A DNA stretch of 64,000 bases, taken from Flavobacteriaceae bacterium (GTDB lineage Bacteria; Bacteroidota; Bacteroidia; Flavobacteriales; Flavobacteriaceae). Within the stretch, counting starts at the first letter, position 1, and each line of letters starts with the position of its first letter. The stretch spans positions 3,488-67,487 of the forward strand of contig NZMG01000030.1 in NCBI GenBank assembly GCA_002694465.1, in the 5' to 3' direction. The notes under the pieces were generated by a model, which was not told the origin of the DNA, made no database searches, and was given only the letters and a program-made list of their open reading frames with translations. Made by a program: the position numbers and the translations under genes. Shown here piece by piece: positions 7,076 to 11,752 of the stretch.

Positions 7076-7176
7076 CCCAAAGCAACTTTCCCCCATTTCC
7101 GTTTTAATTTTTTTCATATTTGTTAGTCCCTAGTAACAAGAAAATTTCATTAATTTTTAAAAACGGAAAGGACAAC

Positions 7177-8154
7177 ATGAGTGCAGTAGAACCCATTTTA
7201 GCAGAAAACAAAGACAGATTTGTAATTTTCCCTATTCAACACCACGATATTTGGGAATGGTACAAAAAAAGTGAAGCCAGTTTTTGGACCGCAGAGGAGA
7301 TAGATCTTCATCAAGATTTAACCGACTGGACCAATAAATTGAGTGATGACGAGCGCTATTTTGTAAAGCACATTCTTGCTTTTTTTGCTGCTAGTGATGG
7401 CATTGTAAATGAGAATTTGGCAGAGAACTTCGTAAATGAAGTTCAGTACAGTGAAGCTAAATTTTTCTATGGATTTCAAATCATGATGGAGAACATTCAT
7501 AGTGAAACCTATTCGTTACTCATAGATACTTACGTAAAAGACGATAAGGAAAAGGACAAGCTTTTTAATGCTATTGAAAATTTCCCAGCGATAAAGAAAA
7601 AGGCAGATTGGGCGCTTAAATGGATCGATAGCCCAAGTTTTGCAGAACGACTTATAGCTTTTGCTGCTGTAGAAGGCATATTTTTCTCGGGAGCTTTTTG
7701 TTCTATCTTTTGGTTGAAAAAAAGAGGGCTCATGCCTGGACTTACTTTTTCTAATGAATTAATTTCTAGAGACGAAGGAGTACACTGTGATTTTGCCGTG
7801 CATCTTCACAATCACCACTTGGTAAACAAAGTGCCAAAAGAACGCATTCGTGAAATTATTGTTGATGCTCTTAATATTGAAAGAGAATTTATCACCGAAT
7901 CGCTTCCTGTAAGTTTAATAGGGATGAATGCGAAGCTAATGACACAATACTTGGAGTTTGTAACCGATAGATTATTGGTTGAACTTCAATGTGAAAAAGA
8001 ATATAACTCCAGCAATCCGTTTGACTTTATGGATATGATATCGTTACAAGGGAAGACCAACTTCTTCGAAAAGCGAGTTTCAGAATACCAAAAAGCTGGT
8101 GTAACAAACATGGATAAAGAGTCGAATAAAATAAGTTTCGACGCAGACTTTTAA
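7177..8154 (+). CDS. nrdB: Class Ia ribonucleotide reductase beta subunit
   Basis: ENIHSETYS (radical Tyr), [32 protein letters not shown]. Start reassigned to MSAVEPIL (7177). Confidence 0.96.
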
Positions 8155-8160
8155 ATAATT

Positions 8161-8190
8161 TCCGTCTGTTCCCCAAAGGGCGGATTTTTT
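8161..8190 (+). terminator. Possible terminator/attenuator between nrdB and nrdA
   Basis: tccgtc...ggcgga stem (one G-U pair) followed by a T run. Confidence 0.4.
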
Positions 8191-8266
8191 TAAAGCTTTG
8201 ATAATGCGCTTTTTAATGATTGCGTAAGAAATAATTTTTTCAAAAAACTAAAAAACCTCTAGCAAA

Positions 8267-10693
8267 ATGAATGTAGTAAAAAGAGATGGCAGGAAAGAAC
8301 CCGTAATGTTCGATAAGATTACGGCCCGAGTACGAAAACTGTGTTATGGACTCAACGAATTAGTCGATCCCGTAAAGGTAGCTATGCGTGTAATTGAAGG
8401 ATTATACGATGGTGTTACAACAAGTGAATTAGACAATCTTGCCGCAGAAATTGCAGCTACCATGACGGTTTCACACCCAGATTATGCAAAGTTAGCCGCA
8501 AGAATTTCAGTCTCTAACCTTCATAAAAATACCAAAAAGACTTTTTCTGAAGTCATGACAGATTTATATGAATATGTCAACCCAAGAACAGGAAAAAAAG
8601 CCCCTCTTTTAAGTGATGAAGTGTACGAAATCATTAAAAATAATGCAGATGAGCTAGACTCTGCCATTATTTACAATAGAGATTTCAACTACGATTATTT
8701 TGGTTTTAAAACGTTAGAGCGTTCGTATTTATTAAAATTAAACGGAAACATTGCAGAGCGTCCACAACATATGCTCATGCGTGTTTCGGTTGGGATACAT
8801 TTAAACGATTTAGCTGCTGTTAAGGAAACGTATGAGTTGATGTCGAAGAAATTCTTTACTCATGCAACACCAACTTTATTTAATAGTGGAACGCCAAAAC
8901 CACAAATGTCTTCTTGTTTCTTATTAACAATGAAAGAAGATAGTATTGACGGCATTTATGATACCTTAAAACAAACGGCAAAAATTTCACAATCTGCAGG
9001 AGGTATAGGACTGTCTATTCATAACATTAGAGCAACAGGATCTTACATTGGAGGAACCAACGGAACCTCAAACGGAATCGTCCCTATGTTGCGTGTCTAT
9101 AACGATACAGCGCGATACGTGGACCAAGGAGGAGGAAAGAGAAAAGGAAGTTTTGCCATGTATATTGAGCCATGGCATGCCGATATTTTCGACTTTTTAG
9201 ATTTAAAGAAGAACCACGGAAAAGAAGAAATGCGAGCTCGCGACCTTTTCTATGCTATGTGGATTCCAGATTTGTTTATGAAACGAGTGCAGGAAGATGC
9301 AGAGTGGACCTTAATGTGTCCTAATGAGTGTCCGGGATTATTTGATGTGCACAGTGAAGAATTTGAAGCATTGTACCTAAAATATGAAGCTGCAGATAAA
9401 GGAAGAAAAACGATAAAAGCGCGCGAACTTTGGGAGAAAATTCTCGAATCCCAAATTGAAACGGGAACACCGTATATGCTCTATAAAGATGCAGCAAACC
9501 GTAAGAGCAACCAAAAAAACTTAGGAACCATTCGTTCTTCAAATCTTTGTACAGAGATTTTAGAGTACACCTCTCCAGACGAAGTGGCTGTTTGTAACTT
9601 GGCATCTATTGCGCTACCTATGTTTGTAAAGAATGGTGAATTTGACCATAAAGAACTATTTAGAGTTACCAAACGAGTTACAAAGAATTTGAATCGTGTA
9701 ATTGACAGGAATTACTACCCCGTAATTGAAGCACAAAATTCGAATTTCCGTCATCGTCCAGTAGGCTTAGGAGTACAAGGATTGGCAGATACATTTATTA
9801 TGCTACGCATGCCATTTACAAGTGACGAGGCAAAACAATTGAATCAAGAAATATTTGAAACACTTTATTTTGCAGCAGTAACAGCTTCTATGGAAGAAGC
9901 TAAAGTAGATGGCCCTTATGAAAGTTATAAAGGTTCTCCTATTTCTGAAGGATTATTTCAACACAACCTTTGGAATATTAAAGATGAAGAATTAAGTGGT
10001 CGCTGGGATTGGGCAAAATTGAGAAAAGACATTAAAAAGCATGGGGTTCGTAATTCATTGTTAGTAGCTCCAATGCCTACCGCATCTACCTCTCAAATTT
10101 TAGGGAACAACGAAGCTTTTGAGCCTTATACCTCCAATATTTATACCCGTAGAGTACTCTCTGGAGAATTTATTGTAGTGAACAAACACCTGTTAGAAGA
10201 CTTGGTTGGATTAGGCCTATGGAATGATGATTTAAAAGAAGAAATCATGCGTGCCAATGGATCTATCCAGCATATTGAAGGCATCCCTCAAGAGTTAAAA
10301 GAATTATATAAGACGGTTTGGGAGTTGAGTATGAAAGATATTATTGATATGTCTCGTCATAGAGGATATTTTATAGATCAGTCGCAATCTCTAAACTTAT
10401 TTATGGAAAATGCGAATATGGCAAAACTAACATCCATGCATTTTTACGCGTGGAAGAGTGGCTTAAAAACAGGAATGTATTATTTAAGAACGAAGAGTGC
10501 TGTAGATGCTATTAAGTTCACCTTAAATAATGAAACCAAAAAAGAACCTGTGGAAGCGGTAGCCGAAGCAAAAGTTGAGGCTGTTTCTGCTGCTTCAGAA
10601 AAACCATTAACAGCAAAAGAACTAAAGGATTTATTGGCGCAGTCTAAAAACGCAGCCGAAAATGATGAAGATTGTTTAATGTGTGGTTCTTAA
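8267..10693 (+). CDS. nrdA: Class Ia ribonucleotide reductase alpha subunit with ATP-cone
   Basis: N-terminal [16 protein letters not shown]-cone, [22 protein letters not shown]-terminal CLMCGS. Confidence 0.97.
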
Positions 10694-10710
10694 TTTTTAA
10701 GTGTTATAAT

Positions 10711-10742
10711 AAAAAAGTGGCTCTGATTTAGAGCCACTTTTA
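10711..10742 (+). terminator. Bidirectional-type terminator after nrdA
   Basis: aaaagtggctct-gattt-agagccactttt perfect stem. Confidence 0.85.
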
Positions 10743-10790
10743 TTAAAAGATTGTTTAATAGTATAAAATTAATTGCTGAGATATAGAAAA

Positions 10791-10820
10791 TAAAAAAAGG
10801 GACGCCTGAGAACATCCCTT
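10791..10820 (-). terminator. Terminator of the candidate minus-strand sRNA
   Basis: Minus strand: aagggatg-ttctcagg-cgtccctt followed by a T run. The stem is fully paired only on the minus strand (G-U pair). Confidence 0.75.
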
Positions 10821-10897
10821 CTTGTTTTTAATGATTCGGTTTTTTCACGTCCGATTAGTTAACTAAAGTCAATGAGATAATCTCATCTCCTTTTGTT
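10792..10897 (-). ncRNA. Candidate ~105-nt small RNA
   Basis: Consensus promoter TTG-N20-TACATTTG upstream, own terminator, no ORF longer than 5 codons from an ATG, internal hairpin atgaga-tta-tctcat. Confidence 0.6.
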
Positions 10898-10901
10898 GCT
10901 T

Positions 10902-10932
10902 CAAATGTAACAATTCGATTTAAGGCTTGCAA
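10902..10932 (-). promoter_or_regulatory. Bacteroidota housekeeping-type promoter (-33 TTG / -7 TACATTTG)
   Basis: Exact TAnnTTTG at 10909-10902 and TTG at 10932-10930, with a 20-nt spacer. Confidence 0.7.
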
Positions 10933-11019
10933 GGTAAATGTTCTCTCAATTAAAAGTATTTATTAAAACCTGATGTTAATAAATAGATAATAGATGTTAA
11001 CACCACAAAACAGAGAAAC

Positions 11020-11697
11020 ATGAAAGAAATTAAAATTTCAGCTAATCAACTCGCCACATTCCCAGAAGGAACCGAGGCAAAAAAGAAAGCAATAATTCGA
11101 CAACAGAAAAATCCAAGTCCAATTATTGTTGCTCGATATGCAAAGGCAAGGTCGAAAATGAAAAGAACTTATTCAGATAAAGGTGATATAAAGCATATTG
11201 TTGATGGTATTGAAGAATTAAAAAGAATAATACCTGAGACAGATTGGAAGCGAAATGATAAAATGGTATCCATAGAAGCTTTAACTAGATTTTTAAGAAT
11301 GGGTTTGCCTGATTTTTTAGAAAAAGTCCCTTATGAAGTATTGAGCAAGCCTAAAATTAGTTACATAATAGTAAACGGTGTAAAAATTATAGTATCTCCA
11401 GATATTATTGTCAGAATCAATATAGATGGGCAGTTTTACTTGGGTGCAATCAAGATTAGAATAGCTAAAAGCAGTTTATTTACTCCCAAACAATCTAGAA
11501 GAATAGCTACTATGATTCATAAATATTTAGAAGATGTTGTTGCAAATGATGATGATATGGTTTCCAAAAAAATGTGTGTCGCTCTTGACGTATTTCACAA
11601 CTCGACTATTACAGCTCCTTCAAAAATGAAAAAAATTTTCAGCGAAATTGAAAGTAGTTGTAATGAGGTTAAGCTGCTTTGGAGTAGTATTGCGTAG
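11020..11697 (+). CDS. Hypothetical protein, possible degenerate PD-(D/E)XK-fold
   Basis: 225-aa ORF with own terminator; N-terminal ISANQLATF and SPDIIV...GAIKIR resemble RecB/Cas4-like nuclease motifs with the second acidic residue replaced by Ala. Confidence 0.7.
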   Translation: MKEIKISANQLATFPEGTEAKKKAIIRQQKNPSPIIVARYAKARSKMKRTYSDKGDIKHIVDGIEELKRIIPETDWKRNDKMVSIEALTRFLRMGLPDFLEKVPYEVLSKPKISYIIVNGVKIIVSPDIIVRINIDGQFYLGAIKIRIAKSSLFTPKQSRRIATMIHKYLEDVVANDDDMVSKKMCVALDVFHNSTITAPSKMKKIFSEIESSCNEVKLLWSSIA

Positions 11698-11725
11698 TAA
11701 CAATAATAAATATTCTAAATTTATA

Positions 11726-11752
11726 GGGAGCGCCAACGGCGCTCCTTTTTTA
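11726..11752 (+). terminator. Rho-independent terminator
   Basis: ggagcgcc-aac-ggcgctcc followed by a T run. Confidence 0.88.

Follow-up and report, generated by a model that had tools for sequence, protein, structure and literature searches.

The stretch of DNA examined here (the window) comprises 64,000 nucleotides from a Flavobacteriaceae bacterium (contig NZMG01000030.1 of assembly GCA_002694465.1). Directly 3' of the ribonucleotide reductase (RNR) gene nrdA it contains a candidate small RNA (sRNA) gene, which is read on the minus strand, convergent with nrdA and divergent from a gene for a partner protein of 225 amino acids (aa). According to an earlier, sequence-only reading of this region, a unit of ~105 nt that ends in its own terminator is an independent sRNA gene, read from a promoter that matches the Bacteroidota consensus; covariation as well as homologues elsewhere support this proposal. 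The features it listed (promoter, AAAGGAG, 5-codon open reading frame (ORF), palindrome, TCGG/CCGA stem and terminator) are all present on the minus strand at the positions given in Table 1, and the sRNA terminator is indeed distinct from the nrdA terminator hairpin. What had been overlooked is that the RNA gene does not stand alone: together with the partner gene it makes up a two-gene accessory cassette bound to the 3' end of nrdA. Judged from its sequence, the element is a genuine non-coding sRNA gene, in which a predicted sigma-A-type promoter (TTG-N20-TACATTTG) precedes three hairpins, the last of them an intrinsic terminator. Very probably the sRNA gene is real, previously undescribed and part of the cassette. 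The minus-strand sequence of the candidate region is CCTTGCAAGCCTTAAATCGAATTGTTACATTTGAAGCAACAAAAGGAGATGAGATTATCTCATTGACTTTAGTTAACTAATCGGACGTGAAAAAACCGAATCATTAAAAACAAGAAGGGATGTTCTCAGGCGTCCCTTTTTTT.

The RNA gene and its homologues

Homologues of the RNA were located only via the partner protein and with a covariance model (R1, built from 14 sequences), which scores the window copy at 87.9 bits. When 401 family-level genomes were scanned with R1, every known copy was recovered together with new ones in G111 and G419 (G and L numbers are our labels for genomes and loci). An order-level sample added two further copies, one of them in another genus (G732), and the metagenomes one further locus of type 1, the type with the 225-aa partner. 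Covariance model and synteny together place the same RNA at more than 20 loci, covering about 17 Flavobacteriaceae genera and metagenomes. Among the 401 family genomes the RNA cassette is present in 14, always at nrdA, and about 96% are without the RNA. BLASTN found no detectable match to the RNA in 60 relatives and no second copy in its own genome. Rfam (release 15), named by the sequence-only reading as a check, has no matching family, whether scanned permissively or at gathering thresholds: cmscan scores for the sRNA interval amount to 12-20 bits against gathering thresholds of 55-100, and the sole gathering-level hit in the window is a tRNA. Viral contigs contain no copy of the RNA (pattern hits in IMG/VR are due to chance, with covariance model scores of at most 35 bits), and a metagenome scan using protein patterns gave no match.

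A separate observation concerns two weak R1 hits of 48-50 bits (G070:C2:67275-67389, corresponding to L133:1476-1590, and G103:C2:620069-620179, corresponding to L135:1570-1680). Here a GGAAACAGGAAG...CUUCCUGUUUCC hairpin and a terminator lie directly upstream of tandem UspA-like genes; the unit is probably a separate sRNA or leader family.

The promoter and the three hairpins (stem-loops SL1, SL2 and SL3) align across five loci with homologues of the partner protein as well as across ten genomes of the family, and individual folding yields three hairpins for each sequence. In the gap alignment of the partner-homologue loci we find the -33/-7 boxes, the hairpin with AAAnGGAG, a second, central hairpin that varies in sequence, an almost invariant terminator (GGGATGTyCT...rCGTCCCTTTTT) and a conserved hairpin on the nrdA side, the last being conserved within cassette subgroups. 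The same promoter-plus-three-hairpin layout recurs, with a spacing of TTG-N18-20 across the extracted promoters. The -7 box reads TAnnTTT(G/A) in 12 of 15 promoters (TTnnTTTG in G170 and G123) and is ambiguous in a copy from a Cyclobacteriaceae metagenome-assembled genome (MAG). This MAG carries a shorter version of the RNA (~80 nt), with the promoter, the UGAGGUGCUAAGCCUCA hairpin and a terminator containing G·U pairs.

Base pairing was counted in a 19-sequence alignment. The terminator SL3 is paired in 96% of cells and shows compensatory changes at 6 of its 12 pairs (one pair, for instance, reads GC:12/AU:4/CG:3 and another AU:10/GC:7/CG:1); the observed covariation score exceeded that of all 500 shuffles, and slid controls were ~55-65% paired. 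The G·U pairs would become A·C mismatches on the other strand, which assigns the RNA to the minus strand. Folded on this strand, the window sRNA forms three hairpins with a minimum free energy (MFE) of -31 kcal/mol (z = -4.05; plus strand, z = -1.46). As GAG is present twice, SL1 has two possible registers, GAGAU/AUCUC and AUGAG/CUCAU, alongside an outer stem in which AGGAG pairs with UUUCU: register a is paired in 86% of cells, the inner pairs of register b in 16-19 of the 19 sequences. As for SL2, a hairpin is found at its position in all 19 folds, and the MFE z-score of the middle region averages -1.5 and is negative in 18 of the 19. Its apex occurs as an exact 12-nt reverse complement between genera: GGATCCGACCCC in G164 (L084) and GGATCCGACACC in G124 (L091), against GGGGTCGGATCC in G377 and G182 (L085/L086). 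Going by these sequences, the difference is a hairpin-loop inversion that preserves the structure.

Divergence points in the same direction for the gene as a whole. Between the window and L051, an 88%-identical relative, the RNA is 95.5% identical, against 82% for nrdA, 83% for the partner gene and 66-87% for other intergenic DNA. The pattern indicates purifying selection on the RNA, with a stronger constraint over its 105 nt than on the adjacent coding DNA.

The sequence-only reading had staked its proposal on the conservation of the GGAGATGAG hairpin and of an AGTTAA/TTAGTTAACTAA block. The hairpin is conserved; together with the purine motif resembling a Shine-Dalgarno (SD) sequence it forms the best-conserved sequence of the RNA. 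GGAG or GAGG is kept in most of 20 homologues, the exceptions being L089 (GAGAG) and L091 (GUAG), where the change from GGAG comes with a matching one (UCUAC) in the opposite arm. The AGTTAA/TTAGTTAACTAA block, on the other hand, is present only in the window and L051. AAAGGAG had been called unusual: the bare 7-mer is common (22 copies in the window), and what stands is its conservation within the RNA. The 5-codon ORF is probably non-coding because its reading frame is not conserved, ranging from 1 to 21 codons with no start codon in 7 of the 20 homologues. Complementarity of a 9-mer to the regions upstream of the M36 protease gene and exbB turned out to be at chance level and to lie in a non-conserved segment; this 9-mer (TTAACTAAA) has 6 copies in the window where 3.4 are expected, and 11 of 100 shuffles have as many. 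For AAAGGAG the expectation in the window is 12.3 copies (1 of 100 shuffles had as many as 22), and at least one copy belongs to a terminator stem (11742-11748).

The surroundings of the RNA carry further conserved elements. The CTCAGC core of the TCTATATCTCAGCA block, downstream of the sRNA terminator, is also seen in G111 and G732, and the block may reflect a longer read-through isoform. Between the sRNA promoter and the partner start codon two TTAACATC boxes (11000-10993 and 10979-10972) lie 21 bp apart. Boxes of the form GTTAAC/GTTAAT recur in other cassettes, and the TTAACATC boxes may be an operator or activator site. A consensus TAnnTTTG -7 box for the partner gene was not found in 10933-11019. 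The spacers of the sRNA promoters (e.g. in L084, L083 and L060) often contain an AGAAnnTTCT / AGAATTCT palindrome, from which the window spacer (10910-10929) is free; such a palindrome could be a repressor site within the sRNA promoter.

Table 1. Features of the sRNA gene, its partner and the nrdA 3' region in the window
Feature	Position	Strand	Remarks
-33 element TTG, inside conserved ATTTAnCTTG	10930..10932	-	18-20 nt from the -7 box in 15/15 extracted promoters
-7 element TACATTTG	10902..10909	-	Bacteroidota consensus TAnnTTTG; spacer to -33 is 20 nt in the window
Predicted sRNA, ~105-107 nt	10792..10898	-	Putative transcription start site near 10897; 3' end in U-run 10798-10792
SL1 hairpin	10861..10897	-	Purine-rich 5' arm with AAAGGAG (10893-10887); pyrimidine-rich 3' arm
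5-codon ORF ATG AGA TTA TCT CAT TGA	10869..10886	-	Inside hairpin
Palindrome TTAGTTAACTAA	10855..10866	-	Lineage-specific
SL2, TCGG/CCGA hairpin	10836..10854	-	Position and structure kept, sequence variable
SL3, intrinsic terminator	10794..10823	-	Followed by U-run 10798-10792
Conserved block TCTATATCTCAGCA	10774..10787	-	Between both terminators, i.e. 3' of the sRNA terminator and ahead of the nrdA hairpin
Bidirectional hairpin, present nrdA terminator	10713..10741	.	Part of the insert; absent from empty sites G006 and G003
Region from sRNA promoter to partner ATG	10933..11019	+	Partly conserved across cassettes with both partner types
Partner gene, 225 aa	11020..11697	+	Predicted PD-(D/E)XK (Cas4/RecB/Dna2-like) fold; no family annotation
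Accessory insert, ~1.0 kb (hairpin, sRNA and partner gene)	about 10706..11724	.	Absent from closest relatives
nrdA, class I RNR large subunit	8267..10693	+	Convergent with sRNA
Terminator common to empty sites	11725..11747	+	Ends nrdA there, partner gene here

The cassette at the nrdA 3' end and its partner proteins

The two closest genomes of the same genus, which match the NrdA C-terminus of the window at 100% (G006) and 98% (G003) identity, reveal the extent of the cassette. Downstream of the nrdA stop and ...TTAAGTGTT, these empty sites have 14 bp, then the terminator AGGAGCGCCAACGGCGCTCC (the AGGAGCGCC terminator) and a Na/Pi transporter gene; in the window the same terminator stands after the 225-aa ORF instead. 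Since both genomes are without the whole stretch in between, it is an insert, which contributes another terminator hairpin to nrdA along with the sRNA candidate and the 225-aa ORF.

At every locus for which the context was read, the cassette comes straight after the 3' end of nrdA; the RNA is read towards nrdA and away from the partner gene. Genes for close partner homologues come right after nrdA on every contig that is long enough, leaving a gap of 323-340 bp, and in the genomes and loci examined the RNA was never seen without a partner gene. Even in the Cyclobacteriaceae MAG the partner protein (28% identity) is again encoded after nrdB-nrdA, and the gap holds the shorter RNA. Two non-orthologous nrdA types (27% mutual identity) host the cassette, and in G377 and G182 the RNAs are nearly identical while nrdA type and flanks differ. 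The genes on the right flank differ between cassette loci. As to the RNR slot itself, the window (7120-10693) and L055, L081, L085, L131 and L138 show class I operons of two architectures: either NrdA carries the ATP-cone (808-827 aa), or NrdB does, next to an NrdA of 595-597 aa. One cassette is seen in decay (G124:C1:882905-885171, L091), its 225-aa gene being split by an insertion of ~1.3 kb.

Two explanations of this address were dropped. A link to a Pho island had seemed possible, PHO4 often following the cassette and TAACA-like boxes being present; it was rejected because the right flanks differ while nrdA is constant. A guide or bridge RNA specifying the nrdA site was rejected because the RNA does not track the nrdA type: no RNA segment co-varies with target or flank (G377/G182), and the insert is without a recombinase.

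The 225-aa partner has no match in Pfam, PADLOC, PHROGs or NCBIfam, nor in a sequence search of the PDB, and a word-based protein search returned only six close homologues. An exhaustive profile search widened the family to 995 cluster representatives at E <= 0.001, all of whose members are annotated as hypothetical. Its AlphaFold model (pLDDT 72.9) is matched by Foldseek to Dna2, Cas4 (SSO0001), MGME1 and AddB/AdnAB, and on this model the protein has a PD-(D/E)XK Cas4/RecB-like fold. The acidic residue of the ExK motif (the second acidic catalytic residue) is replaced by Ala (GAIK), and nuclease activity is uncertain. Members of the family occur in 17 of the 401 family-level genomes: the close ones are all found with the RNA after nrdA (two of them decaying), and five distant homologues are found away from nrdA and without the RNA. 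Among culturable strains, Marinirhabdus gelatinilytica DSM 101478 carries a cassette with the 225-aa partner. Similarly, distant members in Xanthomonas, Flavobacterium suzhouense and a metagenome contig are located elsewhere in the genome and without the RNA. Phage records contain no relative of the protein, and the plasmid search gave one partial match (48% of the query) on a Planctomyces plasmid.

In G111 and G419 the divergent neighbour of the RNA is a different protein of 311-316 aa, the two copies being 39% identical to each other. It is unrelated to the 225-aa protein (hhalign probability 0.3%) and has ten database homologues only. In all three contexts read (Olleya sp. HaHaR_3_96, Gaetbulibacter sp. 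5U11 and a metagenome contig) its gene again follows nrdA with the RNA in the gap. The 311-aa protein has no match in Pfam, PADLOC or NCBIfam; structural matches are weak (TTM/CYTH, TM-scores < 0.2), and a recognisable nuclease fold was not found among them. Common to both kinds of cassette are the sRNA and its promoter, the CCAAGTTAAATATTTCTA block and a portion of the leader.

Function of the module and competing explanations

Sequence comparison establishes the anatomy of the gene, its conservation and strand, its linkage to partner and nrdA, and the presence/absence polymorphism of the cassette. From there we infer the function of the module, and a regulator- or antitoxin-like role of the RNA is proposed tentatively, at clearly less than even odds. 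Blended with the much higher confidence in the gene itself, this gives a figure of roughly 0.55 for the best overall explanation. The sRNA would be the constant component of a ~1-kb cassette whose partner gene is exchangeable, encoding either the 225-aa Cas4-like protein or the unrelated one of 311-316 aa. Acting as the regulatory or neutralising half of a two-gene module, the RNA would keep an effector-like partner in check via its conserved 5' arm, either by short-seed pairing or by protein binding, and the cassette would behave as an addiction, defence or selfish element occupying the nrdA 3' site. We favour an RNA-controlled toxin-antitoxin, defence or selfish module because a constant RNA and regulatory region are combined with exchangeable, unannotated and probably harmful proteins in a patchy ~1-kb insert.

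Several observations weigh against this explanation. The best helix between the RNA and the partner mRNA is 8-9 bp in the window and in L051, which 284 of 300 and 196 of 300 shuffles equalled, and in a crude duplex scan non-cognate RNA-partner pairs scored at least as well as cognate ones. That one RNA serves two unrelated proteins speaks against an RNA which neutralises the protein directly. Furthermore, the 225-aa partner is without the second acidic catalytic residue, PADLOC matched neither partner, and nothing in the evidence explains mechanistically why the cassette sits at nrdA. A bolder version of the module, which we consider rather doubtful, is a previously unrecognised, nrdA-3'-specific class of Bacteroidota cassettes in which a conserved sRNA with an SD/anti-SD-mimicking hairpin, together with the regulatory region, would be the constant chassis that controls interchangeable effectors (a Cas4-like nuclease or the unrelated 311-aa protein). 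With the same reservation, such a class might serve in homing, or in defence or addiction gated by the RNA, and its nrdA-convergent placement would couple it to RNR transcription, replication or phage stress.

Unlikely, but the first alternative to be considered, is a selfish cassette of the homing type. Here the partner would act as a free-standing homing endonuclease: it would cleave nrdA loci that have no cassette, and the cassette would be copied into them during repair. The sRNA would do no more than limit how much nuclease is made. The idea overlaps with the RNA-controlled module and differs in what drives the link to nrdA. In phage T4, free-standing homing endonuclease genes of the mob/seg kind (e.g. 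mobE) cluster at the nrd genes. RNR genes are known hot spots for free-standing homing endonucleases (PMC2790892, PMC2988022), and the strict nrdA address of the cassette echoes this. As with mobE, we see a sporadic intergenic insert of ~1 kb beside RNR genes, in a slot shared by different proteins, of which the type-1 partner has the predicted PD-(D/E)XK nuclease fold. Homing would also account for a cassette that always abuts nrdA in both of its non-orthologous types, for its sporadic distribution (14 of 401 family genomes), for the clean empty site next to a conserved gene in the closest relatives and for near-identical RNAs next to different nrdA types in G377 and G182. On the other hand, the mutated ExK residue makes nuclease activity uncertain and the second partner is without a recognisable nuclease fold, while phage records hold no partner relative and viral contigs no copy of the RNA. 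In addition, the NrdA of G006, an empty site, is 100% identical to that of the window over the C-terminal 297 aa, so that an immunity polymorphism is not obvious. The cassette further differs from the T4 genes in being bacterial, chromosomal and equipped with a dedicated conserved sRNA, and in the predicted fold of its partner, which is PD-(D/E)XK with an incomplete catalytic motif rather than HNH or GIY-YIG. We know of no free-standing homing endonuclease gene that has a dedicated sRNA gene, which also counts against homing.

It might be argued, too, that the RNA is a trans-acting chromosomal regulator which pairs with nrdAB or other core mRNAs (e.g. of deoxynucleotide or phosphate metabolism) and that the protein gene hitch-hikes. 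The conserved convergent position at nrdA and the conserved operator-like elements in the promoter region fit such a regulator, as does a perfect 12-nt complementarity between the single-stranded window linker AAUCAUUAAAAA and 8210-8221, 46-57 nt upstream of the nrdA ATG. We nonetheless regard it as improbable. The 12-nt match was equalled by 10 of 200 shuffles for the nrdA leader alone and by 118 of 200 for the whole operon, and it is lost in L051, where the linker is identical and the leader carries same-sense AATCATT. Pairing of the RNA with the nrdB or nrdA leaders was dropped as a candidate, the one 12-nt match in the window not being kept in L051. Moreover, the RNA is absent from most of the family, has not been seen without a partner gene, and its sequences do not follow the nrdA type. 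The segment at 8210-8221 forms the loop of a small hairpin in the nrdB-nrdA spacer, for which comparison with L051:138-274 shows another loop inversion (TAATGATT vs GAATCATT).

We see very little chance for the idea, raised by the sequence-only reading, that the SD-like arm makes the RNA an anti-SD decoy or 30S sponge, or leads a translated mini-ORF, and the same holds for a variant in which a CreT-like RNA traps tRNA or ribosomes. Most homologues retain a GGAG/GAGGU core with complementarity to the 16S anti-SD, the exact match extending to 8 nt (GGAGGUGA) in L060, and this core is often directly followed by AUG or GUG and then AGA or AGG; strong SD sequences are otherwise rare in Flavobacteriia, rpsU being a known case (PMC9976891, PMC13000453). 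However, the exact anti-SD complement is only 4-5 nt long in many copies, no more than 0-1 nt separates the SD from the AUG, the ORF lacks conservation and in Bacteroidia the anti-SD itself is sequestered on the ribosome (PMC7797042). The GGAG is base-paired with the pyrimidine arm of SL1 in most homologues, in either register, and not exposed, which weakens the decoy; with the ORF missing as well, any ribosome-directed role of the arm is disfavoured. The 16S 3' tail was sought in the draft assembly, which does not include the rRNA operon. CreT was reportedly presented by Li et al. (in Science, 2021) as the RNA toxin of CRISPR-associated CreTA modules. The cassette RNA resembles it in its small size and in the order of its elements (SD, start codon, AGA for Arg, stem-loop), but differs in that start codon and AGA are not conserved and tandem rare codons are missing. 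In the stretches examined around the cassette, neither cas genes nor an antitoxin RNA were seen.

Finally, the notion that there is no RNA gene and that the conserved blocks are DNA-level signals (back-to-back terminators, operators and promoter elements of the partner) could draw on a region with two terminators between convergent and divergent genes and on the SL2 apex, whose inversion between genera a sequence-read RNA loop would not tolerate, but its probability is close to negligible in view of a consensus promoter that points into the unit at fixed spacing in every copy, strand-specific G·U pairs and compensatory changes, the fold z-scores of the two strands and 105 nt that are more constrained than nearby coding DNA.

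Relation to known systems

The RNA-controlled module can be compared with type I toxin-antitoxin loci. Loci of the tisB/istR-1 type have an sRNA that is transcribed divergently from the toxin gene, without overlap. Like these, and like RalR/RalA, the cassette is a small accessory module with a gene for a nuclease-like or toxic protein and an adjacent sRNA with its own promoter and terminator; as to the linkage expected of a type I pair, sRNA and partner are divergent neighbours at every locus examined. RalR/RalA, from the rac prophage of E. coli, is a type I system with a DNase toxin under sRNA control, in which RalA has 16 nt of complementarity to the ralR mRNA (PMC4041452). By analogy it is a precedent for an sRNA-controlled DNase toxin, but the long complementarity that defines it is absent from the cassette RNA, whose best helix with the partner mRNA is no better than in shuffles. 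The cassette also differs in that toxicity of the partner is putative, one RNA serves two unrelated proteins and the locus is fixed at the nrdA 3' end. To our knowledge, most Bacteroidota lack Hfq. Unlike the RNA of type III systems (ToxIN-like), that of the cassette is a single, divergent unit; internal tandem repeats are not obvious in it, although no search aimed at repeats was made.

Among the known Bacteroidota sRNAs, the FopS family and the BTnc sRNAs of Rfam as well as GibS and MasB are similar in being intergenic, ~100 nt long and equipped with a TAnnTTTG promoter and an intrinsic terminator. There is no match to them in sequence or structure, as the low cmscan scores (12-20 bits against 55-100) indicate, and the known ones are not tied to a mobile cassette. 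Few sRNAs have been characterised in Flavobacteriia. The present RNA adds a well-supported new family, and because it has a clear genetic partner its function can be tested directly. The combination of an invariant RNA, exchangeable unannotated proteins, strict 3' residence at two nrdA types and a patchy distribution is unusual, and these four features point to a mobile defence, addiction or homing module not previously described. The cassette also provides a first handle on a large unannotated PD-(D/E)XK family (~1,000 cluster representatives).

Bacteroidia ribosomes ignore SD sequences, their anti-SD being sequestered (PMC7797042), and a conserved SD-like element in a lineage with such SD-blind ribosomes is a further curiosity. 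The element of the Flavobacteriales rpsU gene (PMC9976891, PMC13000453) is likewise a conserved SD-like purine tract in a lineage that normally ignores SD; there the tract precedes a real ORF at functional spacing, whereas in the cassette RNA it is paired and stands 0-1 nt from a start codon whose ORF is not conserved.

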